A stretch of DNA of 62,080 nt, filler included. It is 4 parts of 4 records of this genome, joined end to end, with 100 filler letters (N's around TTAATTAATTAA, not from the genome) between each part and the next. Parts side by side here need not be neighbours in the genome. Positions count along the whole stretch, not along the records: positions 21,057 to 37,468 come from SRR20825006_342; 3 more parts are not named here. One strand, 5' to 3'. A model generated the notes under the pieces. The model was not told the DNA's origin. It was given only the letters and a program-made list of their open reading frames with translations, and searched no databases. Both the position numbers and the translations under genes were made by a program. Positions 20,957-50,282 of this stretch are shown piece by piece. Each line of letters opens with the position of its first letter. Position 1 is the stretch's first letter.

Positions 20957-21056
20957 NNNNNNNNNNNNNNNNNNNNNNNNNNNNNNNNNNNNNNNNNNNN
21001 TTAATTAATTAANNNNNNNNNNNNNNNNNNNNNNNNNNNNNNNNNNNNNNNNNNNN
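20957..21056. other. Artificial contig linker
   Basis: 100 bp of N runs around TTAATTAATTAA (stops in all frames). Confidence 0.98.
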
Positions 21057-21057
21057 C

Positions 21058-21867
21058 GCACTTGTCGACAGCCACTGCCATCTGGACTATCCCCAGTTTT
21101 CCGAAGACCTTCCGGGCACAATTGAACGTGCCCGGAATGCTGGTGTCGGTATGATGGTTAGTATCGGCGTCAAGCTTTCGACTTTCGAAAATGTTCGCGC
21201 CGTCGCTGCCAAAGCTGACCACATTTACTGCACGGTAGGTGTCCACCCGCACGAGGCGGGCGAGGAGGGGCTTTCATCACCTGATCGCCTGATCGAAATG
21301 GCATCCGATCCGAAGATTATCGGTATCGGCGAAAGCGGCCTTGATTATTATTACGATCATGCCCCCCGCGAAGCACAGCGCCAAAGCTTTCGCGCCCATA
21401 TTGCCGCATGTCGCGAAACCGGTCTGCCATTGATTGTCCACACACGTGACGCAGACGACGACACGATGGATATCCTTGAAGAGGAATATGAAAAGGGGCC
21501 GTTTACTGGTGTCATTCATTGCTTTTCAAGTTCGGCGACACTGGCGCAACGTGCCTTGAAGATTGGTTTTTATATCTCGTGCTCCGGGATTATTACCTTC
21601 AATTCCGCAAAAGAAATCCAGGCAGCGGTCGCTGATGTTCCGCTTGACCGTTTGCTTGTGGAAACCGATGCGCCATATCTGGCACCAGTCCCGAAGCGCG
21701 GTAAACCAAACGAACCAAGCTATGTCGCACATACAGCGGCAAAACTTGCTCAGATCAAGGGCGTTGATGTTCATGAAATAGCCCGGATAACCAGCGATAA
21801 TTTCTTCACACTATTCAAGAAAGCTGATCGCAAGAATCTTCTGTCCCCGGAGGCGGGCGAACAGTGA
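21058..21867 (+). CDS. tatD: TatD-family hydrolase (5' end cut by gap)
   Basis: Frame extends upstream of the listed ORF to LVDSHCHLD; GVHPHE, GESGLDY, VETDAPYLAP. Confidence 0.93.
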   Translation, partial: ALVDSHCHLDYPQFSEDLPGTIERARNAGVGMMVSIGVKLSTFENVRAVAAKADHIYCTVGVHPHEAGEEGLSSPDRLIEMASDPKIIGIGESGLDYYYDHAPREAQRQSFRAHIAACRETGLPLIVHTRDADDDTMDILEEEYEKGPFTGVIHCFSSSATLAQRALKIGFYISCSGIITFNSAKEIQAAVADVPLDRLLVETDAPYLAPVPKRGKPNEPSYVAHTAAKLAQIKGVDVHEIARITSDNFFTLFKKADRKNLLSPEAGEQ

Positions 21868-22637
21868 CAAAAATCACCATTCTGGGCTGCGGATCATCAA
21901 ACGGTGTCCCATCCGTTGGCTTGGGATGGGGAAAATGCAATCCGAAAAATCCGAAAAACCGTCGTCTGAGAAGTTCAATCCTGATCGAGCAGGCAGGTAA
22001 AAAAATCCTTGTCGATGTGACACCGGATTTTCGTGAACAGGCATTGCGCCATGACATCAATCATGTTGATGCGGTGCTGTTCACACATGCACATGCTGAT
22101 CATGTCCATGGCATAGATGAGCTTCGCTGGATCAATGTCGCGATGCATCGACCGATCAATATTTACGCGTCTGCCGAAACCATCTCCGACATTGATCATC
22201 GTTTTGCCTATGTGTTTGAACCATTGGCCAACGGCACAGACTTTTATTACAAACCTGTGCTGATCCCGCATGTAATATCCGGGCCGTTTGAAGCGGCAGG
22301 GGTTCCGATAACCGTTTTCCTTCAGGATCACGGTTACGGTGAAACACTTGGCTTCAAAGTTGGGAAATTTGCCTATTCAACGGACGTGGTCAATTTCCCG
22401 GAAGAATCTCGAGAACATCTTTACGGGCTGGATGTCTGGGTTGTTGATTGCCTTCGTCATAAACCGCATGCGACGCACGCACATCTTGAAAAAGCGTTGC
22501 AGTGGGTTGAGGAATTCAAACCCAAACAAACTTACTTCACGCACATGAGCATTCTTTTTGATTACGATGAAGCAATGGCAGATACGCCGGATCATGTCGC
22601 GCCAGCGTATGATGGGCTGGTTATTGATCTGGATTGA
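21864..22637 (+). CDS. MBL-fold metallo-hydrolase (PhnP-like)
   Basis: ILGCGSSNGVP, THAHADHVHG, YFTHMS, AYDGL; usual neighbour of tatD. Confidence 0.92.
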   Translation: MTKITILGCGSSNGVPSVGLGWGKCNPKNPKNRRLRSSILIEQAGKKILVDVTPDFREQALRHDINHVDAVLFTHAHADHVHGIDELRWINVAMHRPINIYASAETISDIDHRFAYVFEPLANGTDFYYKPVLIPHVISGPFEAAGVPITVFLQDHGYGETLGFKVGKFAYSTDVVNFPEESREHLYGLDVWVVDCLRHKPHATHAHLEKALQWVEEFKPKQTYFTHMSILFDYDEAMADTPDHVAPAYDGLVIDLD

Positions 22638-22671
22638 AGGTCGGAAAGGTTGTTCGTTCTCCTATATCACA

Positions 22672-22699
22672 AAGTTCTATAATATATATTAGCCGCAAA
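22672..22699 (-). other. dif-like XerC/XerD site, probable left prophage junction
   Basis: Minus strand TTTGCGGCTAA-TATATA-TTATAGAACTT: 11-6-11 layout with a XerD-like arm; lies between the last host gene and the first phage gene. Confidence 0.65.
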
Positions 22700-22785
22700 T
22701 CATGTGTTAATCCGTTGCTATCCTGTTCGCTACTCTAGGGTAGGGCGCAAAATCACGTAGGATATACACAAAGGTAGGATTGCGA

Positions 22786-23079
22786 TCAGGCCGCAATCCC
22801 GTCCATTGCTTTGTGAATATTGTCATGCATCTTAATATAATAAGTCTCGGCGTCCGTTCCTTTGGTGCGCCAGTAATTGAGGTCTAGTAAAGCCTCAAAT
22901 GGATCATTGCCGCCAAGCAAGGCTAACTTGATCATTATTTCATCACCGGGCAGGCCATGCCCGCGATGATAACGCGTCATGTTGATGCTATTGATGCCAA
23001 GTTCGCGGGCGACCGCATTGTTCGAATGCAGGTTTGAATGCCGTCTGGCGTCGTCAATGTAACCGCTGATTGATTTCAT
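22786..23079 (-). CDS. Prophage HTH repressor (resembles inovirus-type repressors)
   Basis: SNNAVARELGINSINMTRYHRG helix-turn-helix; divergent from the phage operon; GGAG RBS. Confidence 0.7.
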   Translation of the reverse strand: MKSISGYIDDARRHSNLHSNNAVARELGINSINMTRYHRGHGLPGDEIMIKLALLGGNDPFEALLDLNYWRTKGTDAETYYIKMHDNIHKAMDGIAA

Positions 23080-23128
23080 CGCTCATATCTCCGTTTCCCG
23101 CAAAGATTGTATCTCCAAAAAAACCCAT

Positions 23129-23188
23129 TTGACAACATACGGGGAGTTGTGGAGTTCTATTTGCAAGTTGCATAGTGATACTGTGCAA
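23129..23188. promoter_or_regulatory. Divergent promoter/operator region of the prophage
   Basis: TTGACA at 23129-23134; inverted repeat TTGCATAGT-GAT-ACTGTGCAA at 23168-23188. Confidence 0.45.
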
Positions 23189-23318
23189 TGTGCGATCCGT
23201 ACCCATAGGGGCACCCCGTTTCCCAAAGCTCGGTGCCCCGTCCGGTACAGAGGATCGCCGGACAAAGGGAAACGAAGATGACGCAATTAGAGCAAGATCA
23301 GGGCATTACGTCCGGGCC

Positions 23319-23528
23319 GTGCATATCCCCTTCAAAAAAAACCAGTTCGGCGCGTATGCGTTCTTTCCGGGCACTGGCCCAAAGGACAAGCGTTGCGCCG
23401 ACTGCATGTATTGCCGCGATCCCGAAAAGAAGCCGACCTGCAATATGGTTGCGGCCTTTCCGGGCCGGTACAAGTCGGGGCCGATAAAGTCGGGTTCGGC
23501 AAGCTGCAAGTATTTCCGGCAGCGATAG
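23319..23528 (+). CDS. Small Cys-rich (putative zinc-binding) phage protein; start uncertain
   Basis: FPGTGPKDKRCADCMYC..C..CKYF; in-frame GTG at 23319, or ATG 23278 via an A8 slip. Confidence 0.55.
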   Translation: MHIPFKKNQFGAYAFFPGTGPKDKRCADCMYCRDPEKKPTCNMVAAFPGRYKSGPIKSGSASCKYFRQR

Positions 23529-23703
23529 CAGTTTCGCCCGTGTGAGGCTGGGGAGCCAAAATTCACGGGGGTTTGGAAGGGGCTTCTGCCTCTCCACAAG
23601 TGGGGAAGGTGGTTTTTGTCAAAATTCTGCCTTCCCCTTCTAAACCTCAAGAAAACCCTCTGCGCGAAGCGCCAATTTCCACATTCCACGAGGATGACGA
23701 ACG

Positions 23704-24084
23704 ATGAACCAGCTTAAATTTTCCGATGATCGCAAGCATGCATCCGGGCAGTTCTCGACGCTGCATTTCGGCCTTGATATTGAAATTCATGCCATTGATG
23801 GCAATTGGGATAAAGGCAAGCCGCCAGTCGGCACCGGCAAAGAGCCGGGGCGTCCGGCCTATGATGTGTTCGGCGCTGGCCGGGGTGGCGCGGTCAAGCT
23901 GGGCGCGGCATGGCTCAAAACCATTCAGAACGGCCCGAACACAGGGAAGCAGTTCCTTACCATGTCACTTGATGATCCCAGCTTCCCATCAGCGTTGAAC
24001 CTGTCGGCGTTCGAAGGTGACGCGCCGGGTATCTATAATCTGAAATGGGAGCGCCCGCGTCAGGCGACCCAAGATGCCGCATAA
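23704..24084 (+). CDS. DUF736-family protein, putative ssDNA-binding
   Basis: GQFSTL..PAYDV..LGAAW..FLTMSLDDPSFP signature. Confidence 0.8.
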   Translation: MNQLKFSDDRKHASGQFSTLHFGLDIEIHAIDGNWDKGKPPVGTGKEPGRPAYDVFGAGRGGAVKLGAAWLKTIQNGPNTGKQFLTMSLDDPSFPSALNLSAFEGDAPGIYNLKWERPRQATQDAA

Positions 24085-24463
24085 GGGCAACGAGCAAGCC
24101 GGGGTTAACGCCCCGGCCTTTCGTATTCCAGACGGTTTTTCGCATGAGACAATGCCGATTTTTGGCGGTGCGTTCTCTCATGCGAAACACTGTTTCGTGG
24201 AATGGTCAGAAGATGGCGAGGAATACGCGGCTTTTCTGCCGACTGATCGCGCTTTCGACTGTCTGGCGGCATGTGAAGCCATGATGAAGGCTAAGAACCC
24301 GCCGATAGAGAGCGCGGAAATCTGGCCTATGTGCCGGTCTGTCACCAAAGGAAACCTTGACCGCCTTTGGAAGCAGGTGCGGCGGCTGCGTGAGCCGGGA
24401 AATCAGAAAACATGGTCAATCGAGTTTGCCCGGTTCGGGTATGGCGGAGGGTTTGAACGATAA
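24074..24463 (+). CDS. Phage hypothetical protein
   Basis: 129-aa ORF overlapping both neighbours. Confidence 0.5.
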   Translation: MPHKGNEQAGVNAPAFRIPDGFSHETMPIFGGAFSHAKHCFVEWSEDGEEYAAFLPTDRAFDCLAACEAMMKAKNPPIESAEIWPMCRSVTKGNLDRLWKQVRRLREPGNQKTWSIEFARFGYGGGFER

Positions 24464-24723
24464 TGGGTGGTTGTCTTTTTACAGGTCCGGCAGGAAGTCA
24501 AAACAGCGCGAAAATTGTTTACCCGTCCGCGTGGGTGCTTGTTGATATTGACTTGAAAACTGGCGATGTCGCCGGGGTTGTGGGGCCGTTTTTCTCTGAA
24601 TTTGAGGCGGATAATTTTGACCGGCAACGTGCTCAGGTGCGGTCCTTCCGTCGGACGCATAAGACGCGGATTTTTTCCGTGACATCACCATACGACGAAA
24701 TGCGGAAAGGATGCGAACGATGA
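24463..24723 (+). CDS. Phage hypothetical protein
   Basis: TAATG coupling to the upstream ORF, GGAGG RBS. Confidence 0.5.
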   Translation: MGGCLFTGPAGSQNSAKIVYPSAWVLVDIDLKTGDVAGVVGPFFSEFEADNFDRQRAQVRSFRRTHKTRIFSVTSPYDEMRKGCER

Positions 24724-24824
24724 GCGGCGTAACGATAATTGCCTTTTTCGTTGGTGTTGTGATCGGTGCGGCGGTTGTTGCTGCCGTGTTCGCGGGCATC
24801 ATTGATGGCTGGTTTAACAACTGA
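24720..24824 (+). CDS. 34-aa single-pass membrane protein (not in ORF track)
   Basis: MSGVTIIAFFVGVVIGAAVVAAVFAGIIDGWFNN*, ATGA overlap. Confidence 0.6.
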   Translation: MSGVTIIAFFVGVVIGAAVVAAVFAGIIDGWFNN

Positions 24825-24832
24825 GGTGAAAC

Positions 24833-25093
24833 ATGGGTAACGGAATGGATGCACTGAGCCGGGAAGAACGCGAAGAAATGCGCGGTAATCGCTTTCCTGA
24901 ATGTTGGTGCGTAATGGTTTCTCGGTCCAAAACCAGTTGGGGCTGGGGTGTTGTCGTTGTTTACGGGCCGGTTGCGCGGCAAGGCGCAGAGGCGCTTGAA
25001 AAGGTTTTGACTGGCGCGGGATTTTTGGCAGAAGCGGTCAAGATGTCAGGGCACACCGTTGATATTGCCGATTTGAGGAAACTGGTTGATTGA
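24833..25093 (+). CDS. Phage hypothetical protein
   Basis: GAGGTG RBS, 86 aa, in operon. Confidence 0.55.
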   Translation: MGNGMDALSREEREEMRGNRFPECWCVMVSRSKTSWGWGVVVVYGPVARQGAEALEKVLTGAGFLAEAVKMSGHTVDIADLRKLVD

Positions 25094-25098
25094 CGGGC

Positions 25099-25129
25099 GA
25101 AGGGGGCATTTTTGTATCACGCCCCCTTC
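25099..25129. other. Candidate rolling-circle double-strand origin hairpin
   Basis: Perfect 9-bp stem GAAGGGGGC/GCCCCCTTC with a 13-nt AT-rich loop, about 20 bp before the Rep start. Confidence 0.55.
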
Positions 25130-25148
25130 TGATTACAGGGTAGGGAAA

Positions 25149-26357
25149 ATGGATTTAATCTACGCAGGGTTTGACGGTCTTGATGTGACGTTTCAGGGAG
25201 TCATCCCGCTTCGGGCGGTTGATGCTTTCGAAGCGGCCAAGGTGGCAGCACAGGAAACCAAACAGGAAACCTTTGCACAGGTCGGCAAATTCAAGGGTCA
25301 TGTTGCCGAAACCGGGGCGCGTGGCGGCTATACGTATCGGGTTGATACCGGCAATCTTGGCTTTACGTGGTTCTTTTCCAAATCCCAGAAGCGCGAAGGC
25401 TGGAATATCCGGGTTTCCTGCAAGTCGGCAACCCTTGCGACATACGGCTTTGAGGGGGCCATAGGGCTTATGTATGCCGATCTTGAGGCCGTGGGGGCGA
25501 CGGTCCTGCAAGAGGCCATTGCAAGGGTCGATTTCGCGATGGATTGGCGCATGCCCGGTGATTTCCGGCTTGATCCGCACCGCTTCGCGCTCCATGGGAC
25601 AACCAAGGCCGACATGCACGGCGAGGAAATCGGGCAGCACTGGCAGAAACGTCAATGCACCGGCTTGACAATCGGTAAAATGCCGGGGCGGCAAATCTGC
25701 ATCTATGACAAGCGCCGCGATATCGTCGCCAAACGCAAAGACGAATGGTGGAAAATCTGGGGGATTGACCGGGACGAATTTGAGAGGTCCGGGGATCAGA
25801 TGTGGCGCATCGAATTGCGGGCCGGAAAGAAGCATTTAAAGGAACAATGGGGCGTTACGTCATGGGCCGATCTTCGCGCCAAATTGGGCGATATCTATGC
25901 GCATGCGCTCCTACGTATACGTTACAAGGCCCGGACATGGGATGAAGACGAAAATATCACCCGCATTGAGGACGATCATATGTGGGAACGCTGCCGGGCT
26001 GTAACGGGTGGAAGCCTGTTTGAGTACACGAGCAATTGCGGGCCGGGTGTCGTCAAACAGGTCATGCAGGAACAACAGCGCCAGACCATCGCCGCGATGA
26101 TGATCGGCTTGTCAGCAAACCTTGCAGTTCTGTCCGGGGTGGACAAAGACCAGCTATGGGAATTGCCGCCCCTGATTTCAAAAATGATTGCCAGCAACAT
26201 CCACGGGGAGGAAAGCGGAAAAGAGTTCAAATCGAAAATGAAGAAGGTCTATCGCCGATATGAAATCTATGACGAAGATGGAGTGATCCTAGATGAAAGA
26301 ACGATTGGACAAATTGGTGGCGGCACAGGAAGCTGCACAGAAAGCGCCTTTGTTTAA
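25149..26357 (+). CDS. Rolling-circle replication initiator, Rep_trans family
   Basis: GFDGLDVT, ARVDFAMD, TIGK..ICIYDK (catalytic Tyr candidate), WRIELR; AGGGA RBS before ATG 25149. Confidence 0.85.
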   Translation: MDLIYAGFDGLDVTFQGVIPLRAVDAFEAAKVAAQETKQETFAQVGKFKGHVAETGARGGYTYRVDTGNLGFTWFFSKSQKREGWNIRVSCKSATLATYGFEGAIGLMYADLEAVGATVLQEAIARVDFAMDWRMPGDFRLDPHRFALHGTTKADMHGEEIGQHWQKRQCTGLTIGKMPGRQICIYDKRRDIVAKRKDEWWKIWGIDRDEFERSGDQMWRIELRAGKKHLKEQWGVTSWADLRAKLGDIYAHALLRIRYKARTWDEDENITRIEDDHMWERCRAVTGGSLFEYTSNCGPGVVKQVMQEQQRQTIAAMMIGLSANLAVLSGVDKDQLWELPPLISKMIASNIHGEESGKEFKSKMKKVYRRYEIYDEDGVILDERTIGQIGGGTGSCTESAFV

Positions 26358-26454
26358 CAAGGCCCATCTGATCGACAAAGCATTAGTCGAATTGGGCGGG
26401 CTGTTGAACGAAATGGTCGAGCGGATCGAGCGGCTGGAAAATGGCAACCGTTGA
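26293..26454 (+). CDS. 53-aa coiled-coil protein (not in ORF track)
   Basis: MKERLDKLVAAQEAAQKAPLFNKAHLIDKALVELGGLLNEMVERIERLENGNR*, GGAG RBS, overlaps the Rep end. Confidence 0.6.
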   Translation: MKERLDKLVAAQEAAQKAPLFNKAHLIDKALVELGGLLNEMVERIERLENGNR

Positions 26455-26812
26455 TCCGGGCACTGTGATTGAAGTTCGCGCTTGTTCAGGGTGTGGGAAC
26501 CCGGTCTACGTCAAGGCGAACAAAAATCAGATTGCATATTACTTTTGCACACCTAACGACGACAACAACGGTCAAGGGTGTTCGCATCATGAAAAATGGG
26601 GACGGGTCGCATCAAACCAGAAATTGAGGGCGTATTGGGAAGCCAGACGCGCCCACGAGCGTAAGGGGGTTGATGATGACCGAAAAGACCGATTGGCTAC
26701 CGGGAGCCAGCCAGACGAAGCCGAAAGCCGGGCCGACGAAAGCCAGCCTGAACCAGTCCACGAGCCTCAACGGGCCATCCTCGCCGGATTTGCCGAATAC
26801 ATCCGATCATGA
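26441..26812 (+). CDS. Zinc-ribbon protein, possible transcription activator (PM2 P14-like position)
   Basis: CSGC..YFC..GCSH; directly after the Rep module. Confidence 0.55.
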   Translation: MATVDPGTVIEVRACSGCGNPVYVKANKNQIAYYFCTPNDDNNGQGCSHHEKWGRVASNQKLRAYWEARRAHERKGVDDDRKDRLATGSQPDEAESRADESQPEPVHEPQRAILAGFAEYIRS

Positions 26813-27317
26813 CGATATTGATGCGGGTGCTGAACATCTGGCGTCGTTCACGGTTGATCCGCTAGAAGGCGAGGCCGACGAATTTGGCGGGCTGGATGGC
26901 CTGTCAAATCTGGCCGATGACAGCGGCGAATTTATCAGTTCGGACGTGTTCTTTTCGTCCTTCTGTACCGCCTTCCAGATCGGCGCATGTGTGCCGCCAT
27001 ATCTGACCAGCCTCAAGATTGATGACAGCGAAATGGATCAGGCGCGCGCCGCGTCCGATGCGCTGTATGATATCTGTCTTGATACACCTTCCATGCATTT
27101 CCTTGTTAAGCCCGGTGGTGTGTGGTTTCAGCGCGTTGCCGCGATTTCGGCCTTTGCCTTGCCTAAGGCAATGGGGGTTGTTTCGGAAATCAAGGCGAAG
27201 AAGGCAAGGCCGGTCAATCAATCCCCTGGACAAGATAAAAAAGCCGAAAGGGCCAAGCCGGAACCAGCCAAAGAACCGCCTGCAAATGGTGGTCAATATG
27301 ACTGGGCTCCGACGTAA
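26673..27317 (+). CDS. Acidic protein preceding the packaging ATPase
   Basis: Acidic N-terminus, hydrophobic C-terminal helix, TAATG coupling to the ATPase. Confidence 0.6.
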   Translation: MMTEKTDWLPGASQTKPKAGPTKASLNQSTSLNGPSSPDLPNTSDHDDIDAGAEHLASFTVDPLEGEADEFGGLDGLSNLADDSGEFISSDVFFSSFCTAFQIGACVPPYLTSLKIDDSEMDQARAASDALYDICLDTPSMHFLVKPGGVWFQRVAAISAFALPKAMGVVSEIKAKKARPVNQSPGQDKKAERAKPEPAKEPPANGGQYDWAPT

Positions 27318-27958
27318 TGGCGGCGTTTTCAGAAGCGGGCCGGATTGGCATCTGGGGTCGATCCGGGTCCGGCAAATCGACGCGGGCAAAGCGTTTGATT
27401 GCGAAACGAAAGCGGGCCGTTGTCTTTGATCCTCAGGACGAATACCAGCACGAGCGCGGCTTTTTCCGGGTAACAACGATTGATCAGGTCCGGGCCTATA
27501 TGGCGCGAAACTGGCGGCGCAATTTCCGGGTGGCTTATGTGCCGCCAGCCGGGCAGGAAATGGCCGCGCTTGATCGGCTATCAAAGTTGTTGAAAGTCGC
27601 CCAACGGCCATTTTTCGACGGGCACGACGAACGGCAAATCTGTTTGCTGGTCGAGGAAATGAACGAATGTTTCCCCGTGACAGGGATACCACGCGCATTC
27701 GGTGGGTTTGGTGATCTCTGTTCGCGGGGGCGGCATTCGGGGATTGAATTGATCGGCGTTTCACAGCGAATTGCAGAAGTCAATACCCGGTTTCGAGGTA
27801 ATTGCACCGAAACTTATGTTTTCCGGCAAAAAGGGCCGCGTGATCTTAAGGCGGCAAGTGACGAGTTGGGCGGCGTGTCAACCGCAGAAATCCAAGCGTT
27901 ACAGCCGCACCATTACATTCACGAGAAAAACGGGACCATTACCAAAGGGAAAAACTGA
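27317..27958 (+). CDS. Genome packaging ATPase (FtsK-HerA/A32-like; PM2 P9-like)
   Basis: Walker A GRSGSGKS, Walker B LLVEE, arginine finger RGRHSGI followed by SQR..V..RGNC. Confidence 0.88.
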   Translation: MAAFSEAGRIGIWGRSGSGKSTRAKRLIAKRKRAVVFDPQDEYQHERGFFRVTTIDQVRAYMARNWRRNFRVAYVPPAGQEMAALDRLSKLLKVAQRPFFDGHDERQICLLVEEMNECFPVTGIPRAFGGFGDLCSRGRHSGIELIGVSQRIAEVNTRFRGNCTETYVFRQKGPRDLKAASDELGGVSTAEIQALQPHHYIHEKNGTITKGKN

Positions 27959-28028
27959 AAAATCGTGAATTTTCCTACGTAAGGTAATGTAACGTTACCT
28001 AGATTTGCCGCCCCCGAAATTGCGGCGT

Positions 28029-28061
28029 AACCCGGTTGTCAGACAGGCGACCGGGTTTTTT
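28029..28061 (+). terminator. Intrinsic terminator-like hairpin between ATPase and structural genes
   Basis: AACCCGGTTGTC-AGACA-GGCGACCGGGTT followed by a T-tract. Confidence 0.6.
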
Positions 28062-28098
28062 GTTTCCCCGGCTGTCACACAGGAAAAAGGGGTTTTCC

Positions 28099-28188
28099 GT
28101 GAGTGCAAAGAGTTTTGCAGTGGGCGTTGCTACCGCGCTGGTCGCGACGGTCATTTATGACAAATTCATCAAGCCGAACATGGCTTAG
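28099..28188 (+). CDS. 29-aa putative virion membrane protein (not in ORF track)
   Basis: MSAKSFAVGVATALVATVIYDKFIKPNMA*, AAGGGG RBS. Confidence 0.6.
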   Translation: MSAKSFAVGVATALVATVIYDKFIKPNMA

Positions 28189-28197
28189 GGGGTCAAT

Positions 28198-28320
28198 TTG
28201 AAGGGTGATATCAAAACGGTCGTTCTGACCGCGTTGGGCGTCATGGTTGCCGGTTACGTCATGAACATGATGTACGACGTGGCGATTGTGAAACAGGCCT
28301 CTGACGGCTTCGATAAGTAA
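28198..28320 (+). CDS. 40-aa putative virion membrane protein (not in ORF track)
   Basis: MKGDIKTVVLTALGVMVAGYVMNMMYDVAIVKQASDGFDK*, AGGGGG RBS; directly before the MCP, as for PM2 P7. Confidence 0.6.
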   Translation: MKGDIKTVVLTALGVMVAGYVMNMMYDVAIVKQASDGFDK

Positions 28321-28332
28321 GGGGGCGGCGCG

Positions 28333-29151
28333 TTGACCAATCGCATTTCCAAAAAAATGCCGAACGGCTCCGGTATCGGTGCGGGACAAACCGCAACGTT
28401 CAACCTGCCGAACGGCGTAACCTATCATCAGCTTTTGTTCCGCATTCAGGCCGATCTGGGCGCGGGCGTGGTTGATGTGCCGAAAGCCAGCCTTGGCACC
28501 GTGCTTGGTGAAATCCGGCTCTATATCGACGGGCAGGAAACCATTCGCATTGACGCTGCCGATCTGGCGGCAATTCTGACCTACAAGGGCCAGACAGTTA
28601 AGGACGGGGCGTTGCCGCTCATGTTCTCTGATCCGGCACAGCGCACCCCGATGGGTGAAGATGCGCCGGCTATCGGCACCGCCGATATTCAGTCACTTTC
28701 CCTTGAGGTTGATATCAAGGCAGGTGTTACGTCGCCGTCACTGGTCGTTTATGGCCTGCTGGGTCCAAACACACCGCTTGGTCAGTTCTACGCGATCAAG
28801 AAATATCCGTTCAACGTCGGTAATACCGGCATCCGCGAATTGCAGGATTTGCCGCGCTCTGACTATCACATCACGAAAATGCATATCAGCACGGATGATA
28901 TTGATAGCGTTCAGGTCGAGGCAAACCAGCGAATTTTGCGTGACTTTGACCGGGTTGTTGGTGCGGCGGCGGCAATTCAGACCGGCAAGGTCTGGCAGAC
29001 CGGCTGGACGCACATTGATTTCACGATCAGTGATCGTCTTTCCGACTTCCTGCCGATGCTGCTTGAAGATTTCCGGGTGCGTCTGGATATGACCGCTACA
29101 GGCAACTTCAACCTGTATACCGAGGAAATTCGCGGGCGCGTTGCCGCCTGA
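28333..29151 (+). CDS. Double jelly-roll major capsid protein (PM2 P2-like)
   Basis: 272 aa, beta-rich; AGQTATFNLPNGVTY, IGT..SLEVDI, ELQDLPRSDYHITKMHI and IDF..EDFRVRLD are colinear with PM2 P2 motifs as recalled. Confidence 0.88.
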   Translation: MTNRISKKMPNGSGIGAGQTATFNLPNGVTYHQLLFRIQADLGAGVVDVPKASLGTVLGEIRLYIDGQETIRIDAADLAAILTYKGQTVKDGALPLMFSDPAQRTPMGEDAPAIGTADIQSLSLEVDIKAGVTSPSLVVYGLLGPNTPLGQFYAIKKYPFNVGNTGIRELQDLPRSDYHITKMHISTDDIDSVQVEANQRILRDFDRVVGAAAAIQTGKVWQTGWTHIDFTISDRLSDFLPMLLEDFRVRLDMTATGNFNLYTEEIRGRVAA

Positions 29152-29206
29152 CAGGTGGATGTAAACCGGGGCGCTAGCGCGTCCCGGCTGGCCTTAAGGG
29201 GGTAAT

Positions 29207-29497
29207 ATGGCTGAAACGACGCAAAGTGCCGGTGGGCTGGAAATTCTTGACAGTATTTTTGGGTATCTGAACAAAACCAAGAATGCCGTTTTTGAAACCT
29301 ATTCCCAATGGCAAGCGACCTTTGGCAGCGAGAACGCCATGGATGGCGGGGGGGATTATGCAACGGGTGAAAATGCCGGTAGCTGGTCAAACCCAAATCC
29401 GTCACCGCCTGCAAGTGGCTCGGCAAATACCGGGCTCTATATCGGTGTCGGTGTGGCTTTGCTGGCCGGAATGATCGTTCTCACGCGCAAAAAATAG
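29207..29497 (+). CDS. Virion membrane protein (PM2 P3-like position)
   Basis: C-terminal TM GLYIGVGVALLAGMIVL followed by RKK; first gene after the MCP. Confidence 0.65.
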   Translation: MAETTQSAGGLEILDSIFGYLNKTKNAVFETYSQWQATFGSENAMDGGGDYATGENAGSWSNPNPSPPASGSANTGLYIGVGVALLAGMIVLTRKK

Positions 29498-29506
29498 GGG
29501 GCGCAT

Positions 29507-29752
29507 ATGTTTCCTGCGCTTTCTGGTCTTACCGGAATGATGGGCGGCGGGGGTGGCGGCGGTAGCTGGCTGGAAACGTCCAGCGAAGCAACTGCCATGT
29601 CCAACGCCCGCGCAACATCCGGGCAGATTTACAGCTACAACACTGCGCCGTTTATCGTCGGAGGTGACGATGACAACGCGGTTTCAATGATCAAGATGGC
29701 CGTTCCGTTTGTGGCCGCTGGGGTGATGGCATGGCTGGTATTGAAACGGTGA
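29507..29752 (+). CDS. Gly/Ser-rich virion membrane protein (PM2 P8-like)
   Basis: MFPALSGLTGMMGGGG..SSEAT.. with C-terminal TM and KR. Confidence 0.65.
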   Translation: MFPALSGLTGMMGGGGGGGSWLETSSEATAMSNARATSGQIYSYNTAPFIVGGDDDNAVSMIKMAVPFVAAGVMAWLVLKR

Positions 29753-30147
29753 CGTTGGGGGTTGTGGCGTGGGATGACACGGCGGCGGAACATTTCCGCC
29801 CCGTTGTCCTGCCAGACAGCCCAACCGGCCTTGAGGGGCTGCAAAACGACGTGGAAGCGGGGGCGGCTTCTGTGCTGGCCGTTATGGCCGATGGGGAGCG
29901 TATCGGGTCGGTTTTGGTCCGGCTTCTGGCGGGCGGGGATGGTCTGCATTTCGTGATTGAATGCGCCAATGCCGATCTGCCGGGGTTTGATCTGGTCGAA
30001 ACCTGCATGCCCGCCCTTGAGGGCTGGGCCGCAAAACTCGGATGTGTCGCGGTCGATGTACCAACGCATCGTCCCGGATTGGTTTTCAAGATGAAACGGC
30101 GCGATTACCAAGTGGTTCAAACCGTGATGCGAAAGGCGATTGCATGA
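29731..30147 (+). CDS. Hypothetical protein, possible GNAT-like fold
   Basis: DGERIGSVLV..ALEGWAAKLGCVAVDV..RPGL pattern. Confidence 0.5.
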   Translation: MAGIETVTLGVVAWDDTAAEHFRPVVLPDSPTGLEGLQNDVEAGAASVLAVMADGERIGSVLVRLLAGGDGLHFVIECANADLPGFDLVETCMPALEGWAAKLGCVAVDVPTHRPGLVFKMKRRDYQVVQTVMRKAIA

Positions 30148-30518
30148 GTTCCGCACTAAGCAATTCCAGTAGCAAAAGTAGCAGCACAACGACCAGCAAC
30201 AACTATGACCAGCGGGCAGGGGCCGAAGATGGTTCTATCGCGGTTTCGGGTGGTGGACAGGTCAATATCGACGCGACCACGCCAGAGGCTTGGGATTTTG
30301 CCGCCGATGTGAATGCAGACGCGCTTGATCTAGCGGCTATCACGGTCGGATCGGCCTTTAGCGCACTGGAAAAGTCCAATCAGACGGTTGGCACCGCACT
30401 TACGGAATTGCGCAAGGCGAATACGTCTGACACCGCAAACACGCTGGAAATGTTGATCAAGATCGGCGTTCCGGTGCTTGGCGCGGCCTTCATCCTTCCA
30501 GCGATCTTTAAGAAATAG
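30144..30518 (+). CDS. Ser/Thr-rich virion membrane protein
   Basis: ATGA-coupled start MSSALSNSSSKSSSTTTSNN; C-terminal TM and KK. Confidence 0.65.
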   Translation: MSSALSNSSSKSSSTTTSNNYDQRAGAEDGSIAVSGGGQVNIDATTPEAWDFAADVNADALDLAAITVGSAFSALEKSNQTVGTALTELRKANTSDTANTLEMLIKIGVPVLGAAFILPAIFKK

Positions 30519-30525
30519 GGGCAGC

Positions 30526-31233
30526 ATGGCCGATAGTTCATTTTTCCAAAGCTACAAAGGATCGGTTCAGCCGGGGGATTTGTTCACGATCCATCGCCGG
30601 GGCCGCTCCGTTGCCATGGTTGCTGCGTCCGATGATCTGGAAATCGTGATCAATGACGGGTCGCGTTCCCGGTTCTTTGCCGGTGCGTCCCTGAGCTTTG
30701 ATGTCGAGTTCGAGAAAATCCAGATTTTCAACCCGAACGCAACGGCGGCGACCTTCGAACTATGGACCGCCATGGGCCGGGTTGATGACAACCGCCTGAC
30801 CGCTTCGGGCGATCTGAATGTGATTGATCCGAACACGGGGGACAGCTTCGCCAACGTGATCGCCAAGAATGCCGAAATTCTGGCGATGATGCAGAGCGAC
30901 ACGGATCAAGGGCACCCGGTAAAGGTGTTAGGGGAGAATGCTGCAACGGCAGGTTTTATAGCGTCCTCTGTGGAAATCATAAGCCCATTGCTAAACACAA
31001 ACGGGGTGATTGTTCGTCATGCTTCGATTTTGACAGCGGCGTCTTATGCTGCTGGGCTTTTTTATGGGGCGTCTGCACCGGGAAGCATGGTTTCAAATCA
31101 TGCGTTAATACGAAGTTCGAACGCTGTGCCGGTCCATGATGGTCAGTTTTTGTTGTCTGCCGGTTTGGGGCTGTGGGCGTTATCCACTGTTGTGAATGGA
31201 TATTACACCGTTAGCTGGGATTATTTGCCATGA
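30526..31233 (+). CDS. Putative penton/spike receptor-binding protein
   Basis: Beta-rich N-terminal domain ending FEKIQIFNP..GRVDDNR, then a linker and a second beta-rich domain; AGGGG RBS. Confidence 0.6.
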   Translation: MADSSFFQSYKGSVQPGDLFTIHRRGRSVAMVAASDDLEIVINDGSRSRFFAGASLSFDVEFEKIQIFNPNATAATFELWTAMGRVDDNRLTASGDLNVIDPNTGDSFANVIAKNAEILAMMQSDTDQGHPVKVLGENAATAGFIASSVEIISPLLNTNGVIVRHASILTAASYAAGLFYGASAPGSMVSNHALIRSSNAVPVHDGQFLLSAGLGLWALSTVVNGYYTVSWDYLP

Positions 31234-31454
31234 GTGATATGGAAGTTTTAAGCCTTGCCTATCAGCGTCAGGCGCAGGGAGACACTCGTGATCTATCGGT
31301 TATCATAGCGGATATCCGGGCAGATCTTGCCACCATGCAATCGCCCGCGCCGGGGCCAACGGATGAAATCGGTTTCAAGTCCGAAGTGATCAAGGGTGTT
31401 CGCACTGAATACAAGATCATGGGTGATGGCTCTATGGTCGAGGTGACGTCATGA
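31230..31454 (+). CDS. Phage hypothetical protein
   Basis: ATGA overlaps at both ends. Confidence 0.55.
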   Translation: MSDMEVLSLAYQRQAQGDTRDLSVIIADIRADLATMQSPAPGPTDEIGFKSEVIKGVRTEYKIMGDGSMVEVTS

Positions 31455-31954
31455 TGAAAGATGCACTCCTTCTGGTCGGGGCTGGTGGGCTTGCTTTTGC
31501 AGCGTTTCAGGTTGCCAAGGGCAAATCGGTCACAACGATCGATCTGACCAATGCCGGACAAATCAGTCAGGAAGTCGACACCATCGCCCGGACGATCTGG
31601 GGCGAGGCGCGGGGCGAGGGTGAACGCGGCATGCATGCCGTTGCCAACGTCATTATGAACCGTGCGCGGGTTGGCGGATGGTGGGGCAATAGCCCGGTGG
31701 AAGTCTGCCTGAAGCCTGCTCAGTTCTCCGCTTGGAACCGCAATGATCCGAATTTTGACCTTGCCCGCAAGGTGACTACGCAGGACCCGCAGTTCCGTCT
31801 GGCCTTGCAGATTGCTGGCAGGGCGATTGCGGGCACCCTGGACGATATCACCGGGGGTGCAACGCACTATTTCAATCCGAATGTGGTCTTGCCGTCTTGG
31901 GCCAGTGCGCTAACGCGCCTTACCGATATCGGCAACCATCGCTTTTACGTTTAG
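31451..31954 (+). CDS. Cell wall hydrolase (SleB/Hydrolase_2) with N-terminal TM
   Basis: ARTIWGEARGE, AVANVIMNR, QFSAWN, GATHYFNP, IGNHRFY. Confidence 0.9.
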   Translation: MMKDALLLVGAGGLAFAAFQVAKGKSVTTIDLTNAGQISQEVDTIARTIWGEARGEGERGMHAVANVIMNRARVGGWWGNSPVEVCLKPAQFSAWNRNDPNFDLARKVTTQDPQFRLALQIAGRAIAGTLDDITGGATHYFNPNVVLPSWASALTRLTDIGNHRFYV

Positions 31955-31961
31955 GTGACGC

Positions 31962-32240
31962 ATGGCGACCTTCGAACCGCATTACGATAGCGCATTGCAT
32001 TCCGTGGAATACATGGACGGGCGCTGGATGACGTGCGGTGTGCTGGATCAGCATGCATGCATGAATTTGGCGCTTGATGCGGCGACAATTGAAGGTGAAG
32101 GCGATCCGGTGGGCGATCCGTTCGAAGATGATACCGGGTTGGTAATTGGTATGCCCCTTGAATACGAAACGATTGATTGGGGCGTGATTGCGCTCATGTG
32201 CGGCGCGGTGCTGTTCATGGCGGCTTTGGAAAGGGGGTAA
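31962..32240 (+). CDS. Acidic protein with C-terminal TM
   Basis: AGGTG RBS; WGVIALMCGAVLFMAAL. Confidence 0.55.
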   Translation: MATFEPHYDSALHSVEYMDGRWMTCGVLDQHACMNLALDAATIEGEGDPVGDPFEDDTGLVIGMPLEYETIDWGVIALMCGAVLFMAALERG

Positions 32241-32296
32241 TCGTGCGTCTGGGCTTGCGATTGCAGATGATCAACAAACAGGAGGGTGATGACGAC

Positions 32297-32389
32297 ATGG
32301 CAAAAGGTAAAAAAGCCAATGGTCGGCTGAAAAAGGGCTATCGCTACGCCAAGGGCGGGCGCGTGGTCAAAGCGAAAGGCCGTAAGTAA
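32297..32389 (+). CDS. 30-aa highly basic protein, putative DNA-binding
   Basis: MAKGKKANGRLKKGYRYAKGGRVVKAKGRK*; GGAGG upstream; TAATG coupling to the next gene. Confidence 0.65.
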   Translation: MAKGKKANGRLKKGYRYAKGGRVVKAKGRK

Positions 32390-32538
32390 TGCCGTTGCCG
32401 CTGATTTATTTTGGCGTCGGCGTGCTGTTTGGCGGCGGGGGCGTCTGGCTTGCCGGGGATGCTGCCAAAAAGGTCGGCAATGCCGCCCTGATCGTCGGCG
32501 GCGTCTATCTCGGCGGCAAATACCTGAAAGCGTGGTGA
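32389..32538 (+). CDS. 49-aa membrane protein with two hydrophobic segments (not in ORF track)
   Basis: MPLPLIYFGVGVLFGGGGVWLAGDAAKKVGNAALIVGGVYLGGKYLKAW*. Confidence 0.6.
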   Translation: MPLPLIYFGVGVLFGGGGVWLAGDAAKKVGNAALIVGGVYLGGKYLKAW

Positions 32539-32609
32539 ATGGCTGATATCACGCTATGGCAGGTTCTATCCGGGGGCGGCGATCTGGCGACAATCGGTTT
32601 TCTGTACTT
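32539..32609 (+). pseudogene. Small hydrophobic phage ORF interrupted by the transposon end
   Basis: MADITLWQVLSGGGDLATIGFLY then runs into the GAGGGTCGGC repeat. Confidence 0.5.
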
Positions 32610-32656
32610 GAGGGTCGGCAACGATTCTGACGCAATCCTCCAAAATTTGCCTTAAC
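32610..32656. repeat. Terminal inverted repeat of Tn3-family element (TnXax1-like GAGGG end); inner limit approximate
   Basis: GAGGGTCGGCAACGATTC.. just downstream of the tnpA stop. Confidence 0.75.
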
Positions 32657-32665
32657 CTATTGTAT

Positions 32666-35638: not shown

Positions 35639-35863
35639 ACGCAGTTCTTCGCTATGGGGTTCCAGTGAAAGGCATTAGCCCACAGTACTTTCGCTCTTGA
35701 GGGGGGCATTGCTTATAGTAGGCAGCAATTCGTCAAGACCAAAGGAACCGCCCGTTATTTTGTGAACGCCACGCTCGCTTTACGTTACGGGATTATTCGG
35801 TCATCGATCGCCGGTTCCCCGATTTATTGAATCGTTACACCACACCGCAGACTGATTCGAGCT

Positions 35864-36170
35864 ATGGCCATTGAGCATCTTTCCCCCCCCACTGATCATT
35901 CACACCTACCAACGCCTTTCTAGTGCCCAGCTAATCGCTCTGGCAGGGACCGGGCTAACGACGGTGGCGCTGGCGCCGCTGGCCCATGACTGACGGGCGG
36001 CAGTGCGGGCCAGGTGCTCGGCATTGCGCTGGCCCTGAAGATGATTGCCTACGCCCTAATAGCACCTCTGTTTGGGGCTGTTGCCCAAAAACTTCCCCGC
36101 CGTACTCTGCTGGTCACACTGGACATTCTGAGGGCCTGCGGGGTTGCCCTTTGTCACTGAGGTTTGGCAG
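35864..36170 (+). pseudogene. Frameshifted 5' fragment of NreB-like MFS (nickel resistance) transporter
   Basis: Across frameshifts: [56 protein letters not shown]. Confidence 0.7.
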
Positions 36171-36618
36171 GGGGCCCACTCTGGCTAGGGTAGGTACAAA
36201 ATTTTCGCCCAACCCCTTCATGTAATGACGCAATTAAGGGGCACGAGATATTGCCCTCTTGGGCGCAGCACCGATCAACCATGGCGCTCAGTAAAACCTC
36301 AATTTGCTGTAGCTTTTCGATCTTCCCACGTACGTCGTGCAACTTGCGCTCCGCGAGAGTGCTGGCTTCCTGGCAGTGGGTGCCGTCTTCGAGTCGGAGC
36401 AGGTCGCTGACCTCATCGAGACTGAAGCCTAACTGCTGCGATGTTTTCACAAAGCTCAACCTGCCGATATCGCTGGGACCGTAGCGTCGAATACCCCCGA
36501 GAGGACGCTGGGGCTCAGGTATTAACCCACGTCGCTGGTAGTAGCGGATGGTCTCAACTGAGACGTTCGCCGCCTTAGCCAGCCCCCCGATGGTCAATGA
36601 GTTCATTTCATCCGGCAT
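36154..36618 (-). CDS. merR: Hg(II)-responsive regulator MerR
   Basis: [32 protein letters not shown] (three Hg-binding Cys). Confidence 0.93.
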
Positions 36619-36623
36619 TTGCC

Positions 36624-36654
36624 TTGACTCCGTAGTTGACTACGGCCTCAAGCT
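36624..36654 (+). promoter_or_regulatory. mer operator/promoter
   Basis: TTGACT, a 19-bp spacer containing dyad CCGTAG-TTGA-CTACGG, then CAAGCT at the -10 position. Confidence 0.85.
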
Positions 36655-36691
36655 TAACCTATCGAACAAGGCCGTAGAAGGTGTAATTGCA

Positions 36692-36840
36692 ATATCAGAG
36701 TTGAATTCCGAGTCACAATCCGGTCGCGAGTCGTTAATCGCAGGCGGGGTTGCAGCCTGCTCGCGTCGGCCTGCTGTCTGGGCACCTTGGCCCTGATCGC
36801 CCTGGGGGGTTCCGGTGCCTGGATCGGCAACCTGGCGAAG
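36692..36840 (+). pseudogene. merT: merT remnant (ATA at start position, frameshift, truncated)
   Basis: GRESLIAGGVAA / LASACCLGTLALIALGGSGAWIGNL. Confidence 0.85.
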
Positions 36841-36859
36841 TCTGCGAGGTACCGCAAGT

Positions 36860-37468
36860 GCGCACCGCTTCGAGACACCCCGCTACCTAGGTATCGACGA
36901 GCTGTACCTGAACCGCCGCTACCTCTGCATCCTGACCAACCTGGAGGAGCGTACCTTGTTAGACCTGCTGCCCGGTCGTCAGCAGGAGGCAGTGACGAAG
37001 CGGCTCATGAGCATGACCGAGCGCGACAAGATCGAGATCGTCAGCATGGACATGTGGAAGCCATATCGCCGTGCCGTCCAGGCGGCGCTGCCACAGGCCC
37101 GCATCGTGGTCGATAAGTTCCATGTTGTGCGTATGGCCAACGAAGCCCTGGAGAAGGTCCGCAAGGGGCTCAGGAAGGAGCTGAAGGCCAACCAACGCCG
37201 AACCCTCAAGGGTGACCGGAAGACCTTGCTGAAGCGGGCTCACGACGTCTCCGACCGCGAACGTCTCATCATGGAAACCTGAATGGGGGCCTTCCCCCAG
37301 CTCCTGGCAGCCTACGAGCACAAGGAGCGGTTCTACCACATCTGGGACTGTGCCAGCCGGCGAGATGCTGAGCAGGCGCTGGCTGCCTGGATTGACGACA
37401 TCCCAGTCACCAATGCCTTCACGGAGTCGATCAACCGGCTGGCCAAGGACAAGAACCGCGATGGCCGG
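36860..37468 (+). pseudogene. ISL3-family transposase fragment
   Basis: LGIDE, SMDMW, VVDKFHVV, TNAFTESIN; no N-terminus, in-frame TGA at 37280, internal deletion. Confidence 0.88.
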
Positions 37469-37568
37469 NNNNNNNNNNNNNNNNNNNNNNNNNNNNNNNN
37501 NNNNNNNNNNNNTTAATTAATTAANNNNNNNNNNNNNNNNNNNNNNNNNNNNNNNNNNNNNNNNNNNN
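37469..37568. other. Artificial contig linker
   Basis: N runs around TTAATTAATTAA. Confidence 0.98.
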
Positions 37569-50182: not shown

Positions 50183-50282
50183 NNNNNNNNNNNNNNNNNN
50201 NNNNNNNNNNNNNNNNNNNNNNNNNNTTAATTAATTAANNNNNNNNNNNNNNNNNNNNNNNNNNNNNNNNNNNNNNNNNNNN
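50183..50282. other. Artificial contig linker
   Basis: N runs around TTAATTAATTAA. Confidence 0.98.

Follow-up and report, generated by a model that had tools for sequence, protein, structure and literature searches.

A probable PM2-like prophage at the dif site of a Thalassospira-like bacterium shares its replication cassette with integrase-bearing islands that carry anti-phage genes

The window analysed here is a stretch of 62,080 nucleotides made of four contigs, and its segment 22672–26357, on the contig SRR20825006_342 (positions 21057–37468), is very probably the lysogeny-plus-replication arm of a tailless, membrane-type double jelly-roll (DJR) prophage of ~10–11 kb, belonging to the alphaproteobacterial 'clade A' of Vinavirales and residing in a marine, Thalassospira-like host. 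The element is inserted at the chromosomal dif, its left junction being a host/phage hybrid dif; its Rep cassette and its capsid module have different histories; and the Rep cassette is common to capsid-less, integrase-bearing islands with anti-phage genes. As a finding it is ordinary and belongs to a group already known: one more prophage of the Vinavirales clade A type, inserted at dif and equipped with an initiator of the Rep_trans superfamily, and one more PM2-like prophage with swapped replication genes, of a kind described since 2007. What is worth attention is dif-type integration outside Vibrio, a cassette common to a virus and to defence islands, and a structured element that occurs with DUF736, which is new here. 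The features on which the argument depends are the following (ORF, open reading frame; HTH, helix-turn-helix; MCP, major capsid protein).

22672..22699, no strand: hybrid dif junction (attL), a 28-mer made of the host arm, the hexamer and the start of the second arm, then the phage remainder
22786..23079, minus strand: HTH repressor of 97 aa, P16/RstR class (PHROG 638)
23106..23135, minus strand: promoter-like site for the repressor (TTGTCA, 18 nt, TACAAT; 10 of 12 consensus matches)
23528..23676, plus strand: conserved structured element of ~145 nt, ending 28 nt before the DUF736 start codon
23704..24084, plus strand: DUF736 protein of 126 aa, a predicted eight-strand beta-barrel (PF05284, 8.6e-12)
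24074..24463, plus strand: 129-aa ORF, with 60% identical ORFs in the related elements L088 and L089
24463–24723 and 24833–25093, plus strand: two putative 86-aa ORFs, from the ORF list
25149..26357, plus strand: predicted rolling-circle replication initiator Rep of 402 aa, divergent branch of the Rep_trans superfamily
27317..27958, plus strand: FtsK/HerA-type packaging ATPase (PHROG 2666, 6.6e-24; DUF87, 9.1e-06)
28333..29151, plus strand: PM2 P2-type double jelly-roll MCP (PF18628, P2_N, 4.3e-20; PF25513, P2_C, 6.2e-21)
31451..31954, plus strand: SleB-superfamily cell-wall hydrolase, the endolysin (PF07486, 2.4e-22; PHROG 938, 1.1e-23)

A PM2-type capsid module continues the replication operon

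The rightward operon (structured element, DUF736, 129-aa ORF, small ORFs, Rep) continues into packaging, capsid and lysis genes of PM2 type. The first-pass annotation, made from the letters of the sequence, had spoken of a corticovirus-type capsid module, and such a module is present, with its PM2-type ATPase, P2-type MCP and SleB-type lysin. The MCP is 23% identical to P2 of PM2 (NC_000867; BLASTP E 1e-10) and has 47 matches among phage records, all of them tailless Vibrio phages at 24–28% identity. A P2-type DJR MCP preceded by an FtsK/HerA ATPase is a trait of Vinavirales, and a SleB-superfamily hydrolase in place of PM2 P5 is a trait of Vinavirales clade A; the window has both. Clade A is further marked by a P16-type regulator and by TR_Z1 replacing P15; the stretch in which TR_Z1 would be expected is cut away here by the transposon. 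The region 26441..27317, which holds a Zn-ribbon protein and a 215-aa ORF, has homologues in the related prophages L029, L024, L016, L005 and L080. The last of these, a 10,681-nt viral contig, has a 60-nt terminal repeat and the gene order of the window, which together indicate a circular genome of the window's prophage type.

The layout of PM2 (NC_000867) is alike: a leftward regulator and a rightward early operon that ends in the initiator, followed, as in the window, by the ATPase, the MCP, membrane proteins and lysis genes. PM2 differs in its initiator P12, which is unrelated to the window Rep (hhalign probability 0.3%), and in being described as strictly lytic (Krupovic and Bamford, 2007; PMC1950889), whereas the window element is a prophage. 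Closer likeness is found in the clade A prophages of Alphaproteobacteria, the proposed Mestraviridae (Yutin et al., 2022; PMC9502842). In the parts of that survey used here, they share with the window element the P2-type DJR MCP, the FtsK/HerA ATPase, the SleB-superfamily lysin replacing PM2 P5, a P16-class regulator and an alphaproteobacterial host; Rep_trans is listed among the often displaced Vinavirales replication proteins, Rep being replaced along with two to three short upstream ORFs. Neither the DUF736 gene nor the cassette's structured element figures in those parts of its account of clade A.

The element is inserted at dif

The full site at 22672–22699 (AAGTTCTATAATATATATTAGCCGCAAA) occurs once in the window against 0 copies expected from shuffles. 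Its host part reads AAGTTCTATAA-TATATA-TTA and the phage-derived remainder is GCCGCAAA. Flanks were compared through four Thalassospira genomes reached from the Rep loci and queried with the left flank of the prophage. Three of these relatives (L082, L084 and L085) have an intact dif, AGTTCTATAATATATATTATGACAAA, after the same metallo-beta-lactamase (MBL)-fold gene; in the fourth (L083) the site was not present in the 230 nt inspected. Over its first 19–20 nt, which take in one arm, the central hexamer and the beginning of the other arm, the window site equals the dif of the relatives; past that point the two differ, which is the signature of recombination inside dif.

Both ends can be seen in three related tailless prophages that have a repressor homologue and enough flank. 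In all three the left copy is a partial dif that abuts the repressor gene at its 3' end and the right copy is a full one, the two forming direct repeats of 17–19 nt that span 10.9–12.6 kb: in L005 the left copy (ATTTTCCATAATATACATT...) lies at 7403 and a full 28-nt dif-like site at 18497, with 19 nt common; in L029 the copies lie at 8310 and 19223, and in L039 at 6776 and 19412, each pair with 17 nt common. Taken together, the hybrid dif of the window, the intact dif in three of four relatives and the prophages flanked by dif repeats identify the element as an Xer-type integrative prophage. No integrase or transposase family was found by Pfam among the ORFs scanned in 22786–32240, and the missing right end could still encode one. 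The simple direct repeats of 17–19 nt in the relatives fit a double-stranded attP, and nothing requires a folded single-stranded site of the CTX type. Host XerC/XerD would integrate the double-stranded circular form at dif and, in doing so, regenerate a working dif on one side.

Integration of this kind was described as 'dif-type' for 258 Vibrio DJR prophages, 17-nt one-armed attP sites included (Ma and Zhang, 2025; PMC12715192). Going by the available text of that study, these prophages are like the window element in having no integrase of their own, a dif-like attP of 17–28 nt, a repressor beside the junction and one junction that regenerates dif. They differ in host, which is gammaproteobacterial rather than alphaproteobacterial, and in their P15/XafT (DUF3653) gene, which is not visible in the part of the window element that lies on the contig; the window repressor is faintly RstR-like and the replication protein a Rep_trans relative. 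Our junctions extend the Vibrio result to alphaproteobacterial members of Vinavirales, which integrate at dif, presumably via host Xer: for most Vinavirales prophages, clade A included, integration was called unclear in the consulted parts of the 2022 survey, and the 2025 study, in the text available, concerns Vibrio only, whereas the dif integration of the window element is visible in its junctions.

Rep is a divergent member of the Rep_trans superfamily

The Rep ORF as listed (25086–26357, 423 aa) begins with TTG; as homologues at 85–100% identity have 402 aa, translation more probably starts at the ATG at 25149. The family comprises 119 clusters at E <=0.001, of which the named ones are all alphaproteobacterial or close and the nearest come from Thalassospira. 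The motifs that had been quoted for Rep in the first-pass annotation prove to be the invariant core of the family: R126, D128, D132, Y186, K188, R220, E222 and R224 (402-aa numbering) are the same in all 37 aligned members. Y186 (codon 25704–25706) is the candidate nucleophile, and D128, D132 and E222 are putative metal-binding acidic residues. The tyrosine of pT181 RepC stands in a similar I-Y-N-K context.

When family members were scanned one by one (E up to 0.1), 20 of the 37 matched PF02486 (Rep_trans), at best with 4.2e-09, and two matched Phage_CRI, the N-terminal family of inovirus gpII; a precomputed PF02486 match is carried by 6 of the 119 homologues. PF02486, the Pfam family proposed in the first-pass annotation, is thus matched by relatives and not by the window protein itself, as set out below. 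An AlphaFold (AF2) model of Rep built from the 37-sequence alignment (predicted local distance difference test, pLDDT, 88.1; predicted template-modelling score, pTM, 0.80) gave, in Foldseek, 4cij chains A–D, 4cwc and 4cwe as its top six rows (E 1.7e-09 to 2.3e-07), all of them rolling-circle initiators, 4cij from Geobacillus and the other two Staphylococcus RepDE; TATA-binding proteins come next in the list, from E 3.9e-04. We take these solved initiators (RepSTK1 and RepDE) to be Rep_trans (PF02486) members with a pseudo-symmetric fold like that of TATA-binding proteins. The window Rep resembles them, the pT181 RepC/RepD family and CTXphi RstA in its predicted fold, its Y-x-K motif and its acidic residues, and differs from Rep_trans initiators in ~130 extra C-terminal helical residues and in scoring under every Pfam threshold. 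Two indirect lines, the matches of relatives and the predicted fold, thus place Rep in a divergent branch of the Rep_trans superfamily, an assignment that holds at superfamily level. It had been proposed that Rep is of the Rep_trans type and not of the HUH type, and this survives: given the fold of 4cij, 4cwc and 4cwe and the hhalign result with P12, no match to HUH or another family spoke for a different assignment. After induction, Rep would nick its cognate origin through Tyr186 and drive rolling-circle replication.

The replication cassette and the capsid module have different histories

Window proteins were compared with those of eleven capsid-bearing elements, and identities run in opposite directions for Rep on one side and for the capsid protein and the ATPase on the other:

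Rep, window against L087 73%, L088 68%, L029 36%
Capsid protein, window against L087 30%, L088 29%, L029 56%
ATPase, window against L087 34%, L088 38%, L029 61%

The window, L087 and L088 form a 100/100 clade in the Rep tree, whereas in the capsid tree L087 and L088 (100/99) stand apart from the window, L029 and L024. In approximately unbiased (AU) tests, the capsid data reject the grouping of the window with L087 and L088 (p 0.0017), as do the ATPase data (p 9e-06), and the Rep data reject that of the window with L029 and L024 (p 4e-17); since the groups were picked after the trees had been seen, these p-values are descriptive. The incongruence of Rep and MCP trees, a test of which the first-pass annotation had proposed, is thereby confirmed (AU p 0.0017 to 4e-17), and module exchange is real because the two trees disagree.

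To see with what else the cassette travels, the Rep alignment was used to fetch 79 loci from one-genome-per-species contigs and two from viral contigs, 81 in all. Iterated profile searches with the window proteins detected a P2-type capsid gene in eight of them (L005, L016, L024, L029, L039, L049, L058 and L080). Of 35 capsid-less neighbourhoods scanned with Pfam, in batches of 9, 10 and 16 (the last with ORFs of >=140 aa only), 25 have a tyrosine integrase next to the cassette and 18 have genes that can be recognised as anti-phage; Zot or another inovirus hallmark was found in none. The defence genes include Type ISP and Eco57I-type restriction enzymes, NgoMIV with GmrSD, McrBC, SIR2 with HerA, KAP NTPases, OLD/Gabija-like nucleases with UvrD, Shedu SduA, a cyclic-oligonucleotide-based anti-phage signalling (CBASS) set, a TIR protein and AAA_21 with DUF4276. 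The Rep tree has 82 rows, of which a clade of 36 (SH-aLRT 100) takes in all nine capsid-linked Reps and seven of the nine rows with DUF736 but no capsid gene; integrase islands make up nearly all of the other 46. L001–L004, at ~60% identity the nearest genomic relatives of the window Rep, gave no capsid-gene match in the profile search, and in the L001 neighbourhood none was found by Pfam either.

Inoviruses are thus not among the visible exchange partners, which are other tailless prophages of Alphaproteobacteria and defence islands that bear an integrase. One replicon type ties a capsid-encoding virus to islands with restriction systems, CBASS, Gabija-like, Shedu and SIR2-HerA defences. Module exchange in PM2-like prophages is not new, and most of the idea has been published (Krupovic and Bamford, 2007; Yutin et al., 2022; Ma and Zhang, 2025); already the first of these, in the text available, counted four replication systems among 13 PM2-like prophages and called the replication genes interchangeable (PMC1950889).

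Three observations on individual loci belong here. Small alphaproteobacterial islands form a widespread family in which a tyrosine integrase is followed by an unnamed ORF of ~230 aa and the structured element, in some cases by DUF736, and then by Rep and anti-phage cargo (L009, L012, L014, L017, L032–L034, L036, L037, L040, L042, L044, L050, L055, L061, L074 and L081), with Rep at about 10 kb in most; such islands may be replicative defence islands or phage satellites. At L020:9992-18756, Rep is followed by an ATPase match, numerous small ORFs, a lysin with an SLT domain and, farther off, DUF736, with no MCP detected by the profile; this is probably a tailless prophage with a capsid protein too divergent for it. 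At L044:9665-12324, on a Micavibrio contig, two tandem Rep genes with zero-length tree branches lie behind one DUF736, either a tandem duplication or an assembly artefact.

A structured element precedes DUF736 or Rep

The ~145-nt element at 23528..23676 is nearly invariant between the window, L088 and L089, although the Reps of these two are only 68% identical to that of the window, and its one variable stem is preserved by compensatory changes. None of 200 shuffles folds as well as the element (z -3.4). From the three sequences a covariance model was made, and it found five further sites, all upstream of DUF736 or Rep. In the model-fitted alignment, which leans towards the model, 94.7% of cells pair, against 43–58% with the partners slid, and double changes are seen in 24 of the 42 pairs; when 21 sequences were aligned by MAFFT only, with no structure model, 17 pairs were predicted, 13 of them with compensatory changes. 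Iterated nhmmer, a sequence-only search in which profile drift is possible and positions were consistent, returned 57 matches in 56 of 86 sources. In L016, whose prophage is permuted so that DUF736 lies far from Rep, the element remains with DUF736. The element had no Rfam match, a scan of 22500–32700 giving two chance-level matches only.

What the element does can be read in two ways, as an operon leader RNA or as the plus-strand (lagging-strand) origin of the displaced single strand. The first, a cis-regulatory leader (5' untranslated region) of the DUF736-Rep operon that would control translation or attenuation of the first gene and would not be a DNA origin, is quite possible, and we put it somewhat below even chances. 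The distance to the first start codon is nearly fixed (28 nt in the window, 27–41 nt in L012, L081, L036, L040 and L016), and 56 of the 57 nhmmer matches lie on the same strand as the genes. In the MAFFT-only alignment there are 26 G.U pairs to 10 A.C mismatches, which indicates that the sense strand is selected to fold; a template-strand promoter for DUF736 does not fit this strand count. A covarying noncoding motif directly upstream of DUF736 genes is also listed in a preprint (bioRxiv 2026, 10.64898/2026.10.21.760802). Yet the displaced plus strand of a rolling-circle replicon would equally give a sense-strand fold. In the rows checked, moreover, the element is present wherever the Rep family occurs, DUF736 or not, as expected of a cognate origin: it stands just before DUF736 where that gene is present and otherwise 100–560 nt before Rep. 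A consensus scan found no promoter upstream of it, and that no RNA-library contig lies on it says little.

A bolder idea is that the element works together with DUF736 as a portable unit during the phase in which the replicon is single-stranded, the element as plus-strand single-stranded DNA (ssDNA) origin or promoter-like fold and DUF736 as a non-OB protein (OB, oligonucleotide/oligosaccharide-binding) on the displaced strand, serving rolling-circle replicons of tailless phages and of capsid-less defence islands alike. We hold this improbable; if it were true, the defence islands that share Rep and the element could be satellites replicating from the same type of origin. The conserved, covarying element marks the cassette and offers a concrete target for the search for an origin and for the function of DUF736. 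Elsewhere in the cassette, an inverted repeat at 24132–24193 (24-nt arms, 83% complementary, 14-nt loop), inside the 129-aa ORF downstream of DUF736, could be the double-strand origin.

DUF736 is supported as part of the cassette by position

The DUF736 gene that had been seen in the first reading is confirmed (23704–24084, plus strand; PF05284 8.6e-12, 45.3 bits against a cut-off of 22.1), and a scan of 1.84 billion cluster representatives found 248 relatives at E <=0.001. The AF2 model from a 78-sequence alignment (pLDDT 92.2) is all-beta with eight strands; Foldseek gave no match to it at E <=0.001, and exhaustive structural alignment gave at best Z 6.5 to haemophore, avidin-like and designed barrels, a range considered unspecific. 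No OB-fold or single-stranded DNA-binding protein (SSB) chain is among the top 50 structural matches, which does not by itself exclude ssDNA binding. Searches of the Protein Data Bank (PDB) by sequence and by profile gave nothing relevant, NCBIfam gave no match at E up to 1, and the C-terminus (...RQATQDAA) is without the acidic tip of bacterial SSBs. A role of DUF736 in the replication cassette is supported by its position, and it may be an accessory of the single-strand phase; that it is an analogue of RstB is a guess by analogy. DUF736 was found on all Mesorhizobium integrative and conjugative elements examined (PMC8627217), and neither the parts of that paper used here nor those of the preprint on the noncoding motif (10.64898/2026.10.21.760802) report a function. 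Of the neighbouring ORFs, that of 129 aa (24074..24463) has no Pfam, PHROG or NCBIfam match, and the two of 86 aa have no family match in the same three databases and no tblastn match in related elements.

A divergent repressor beside the junction

A divergent HTH repressor of ~100 aa next to a dif-like site, as first noted, is there: 97 aa at 22786–23079 (minus strand), the site being at 22672–22699. It matches PHROG 638 ('transcriptional regulator', 2.4e-10) and PHROG 4441 ('HTH DNA binding protein', 1.5e-07) and no Pfam family. Homologues at 34–35% identity occupy the same position in L005, L029, L039 and L089. Its ties to named repressors are faint. It aligns in register over 41 residues of the HTH with gp c of PM2, a 92-aa HTH gene product of the leftward early operon (BLASTP E 0.015), and among phages it matches best an HTH protein from a Burkholderia phage (tblastn, E 1e-03). 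PM2 and CTX phages are absent from its 24 tblastn matches.

In a lysogen the repressor would keep the rightward operon off. RNA-library contigs from four runs of four studies cover 22640–23126 at 100% identity; other cover within 22640–26400 is one 150-nt contig inside Rep, none lies on 23144–25537 or 25790–26400, and lack of cover proves nothing. These contigs fit a lysogen that transcribes its repressor, a weak hint because they cannot exclude DNA carry-over. The consensus promoter scan found three sites against 2.0 expected, and the one at 23106..23135 is not significant alone.

How well the identification stands

Several findings weigh against the identification given at the outset. Neither Pfam (to E 10) nor NCBIfam, PHROGs or the PDB has a sequence model that the window Rep matches; against the PDB, a search with the single protein and with the 37-sequence profile gave as its only profile match a designed helical repeat (E 0.026). 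The family assignment rests on relatives and on predicted fold, with template-modelling scores to the solved initiators of 0.33–0.38 (query) and 0.45–0.54 (target). The origin and nick site were not identified, the candidates being the structured element at 23528–23676 and the hairpin at 24132–24193. DUF736 stands beside Rep in 15 of the 81 loci, so that it is not required by the Rep family. Iterated hidden Markov models may miss divergent capsid genes, as in the case of L020, and the tally of capsid-less loci is therefore an upper bound. The attP is not readable, and the circular relative L080, from a host whose dif is not known, showed no site that could be recognised as dif-like. Only the left junction is visible: no second dif-like site was found in 21057–37468, and attR is thus not on this contig, because the right end is interrupted by a transposon and the contig stops at 37468. 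Owing to that Tn3-family insertion and the contig end, attR and ~1–2 kb of the right end are missing, and the prophage may be defective.

The last point can be carried further. That the prophage is a dead remnant, its right end removed by the Tn3-family insertion and its left arm merely carried in the chromosome, seems to us rather unlikely. The transposase does abut the last phage ORFs, and a second assembly, the independent marine metagenome contig L086, is 100% identical to window 21057–32692 and stops there, with the same phage/transposon junction. But all ORFs from the repressor through the lysin are open, and the missing part may lie past the transposon on another contig. The 3.76-kb stretch 22640–26400 is whole and identical in 13 DNA runs from eight studies, among them runs labelled as a single organism as well as metagenomes from marine, subsurface and sediment samples. 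Either the strain or the element has a wide geographic range; for the choice between a remnant and a living prophage this spread decides little, as it fits a widespread strain and an active element equally.

A filamentous-phage source is unlikely

Like the RS2 module of CTXphi (RstR, RstA, RstB) and other integrative mobile elements exploiting Xer (IMEX), the window element has a divergent repressor and an initiator of the Rep_trans superfamily, and recombinases of the host integrate it at dif. On grounds of this sort the first-pass annotation had called the module inovirus-style and had proposed an exchange between filamentous-phage or plasmid replicons and DJR viruses, with DUF736 as a possible analogue of RstB and ssDNA intermediates as a possible integration substrate. 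On this reading the control and replication genes (repressor, DUF736, Rep) would come from a CTXphi-like filamentous phage. Further points on that side are the 20 and two family members that match PF02486 and Phage_CRI, the faint match of the repressor to phage_RstR, and the structured plus-strand element upstream of the Rep operon, which presumably recalls the intergenic origin region of f1. Also, RstR/P16, XafT/P15 and a dif-like attP are reported to be common to Vibrio dif-type DJR prophages and CTX-I inoviruses (Ma and Zhang, 2025; PMC12715192).

We nevertheless consider this origin very unlikely: Rep has no tblastn match at E up to 0.01 in 50,697 phage records, inoviruses included, none of the 35 capsid-less neighbourhoods has an inovirus hallmark, the RstR match (NF041951; E 0.0028) reaches 17.9 bits against a cut-off of 80 with no CTX phage among the repressor's tblastn matches, DUF736 as modelled has neither an OB fold nor the tail of an SSB, and the junctions are simple direct dif repeats of the type that fits a double-stranded attP. 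The window element further differs from RS2 and IMEX in having no RstB homologue and no inovirus morphogenesis genes, and its nearest Rep relatives lie in integrase-bearing islands. Of the earlier proposal, then, the exchange of modules with DJR viruses stands; the inovirus source and the naming of the repressor as RstR are not supported; and the inovirus-style label is apt for the shared superfamily and the use of Xer and not beyond them.

Contig setting and remaining features

The four contigs of the window are joined at 20957–21056, 37469–37568 and 50183–50282, each joint consisting of two 44-N blocks with 12 bases between, and gene neighbourhood across the joints is meaningless since these are spacers. 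On the contig of the prophage, the left flank holds a TatD-like gene and the MBL-fold gene. The Tn3-family transposon end interrupts the last phage ORF (window 32602–37468), and a matching inverted repeat of this element was not found in 32400–37468. The small ORFs of the late operon at 29207..31454 received no family name from Pfam or PHROG. The features on this contig that are not listed above are:

21864–22637: MBL-fold gene, left flank of the prophage
26441–26812, plus strand: Zn-ribbon protein (Zn_ribbon_recom, 3.8e-04, under the cut-off)
26670–27317, plus strand: 215-aa ORF
29207..31454, plus strand: late-operon small ORFs (membrane and structural), conserved in part in L029, L005, L058, L087 and L088
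31962..32601, plus strand: last small ORFs up to the transposon junction, from the ORF list
32666–35638, minus strand: tnpA, Tn3-family transposase (PF01526, 1.4e-145)
36154–36618: MerR-like regulator, read by eye, followed by a fragment of another transposase up to the contig end

Between ~22.7 and 32.6 kb the genes form a co-oriented block in which the GC skew is positive, and the phage/transposon junction, placed by eye, lies near 32.60 kb.

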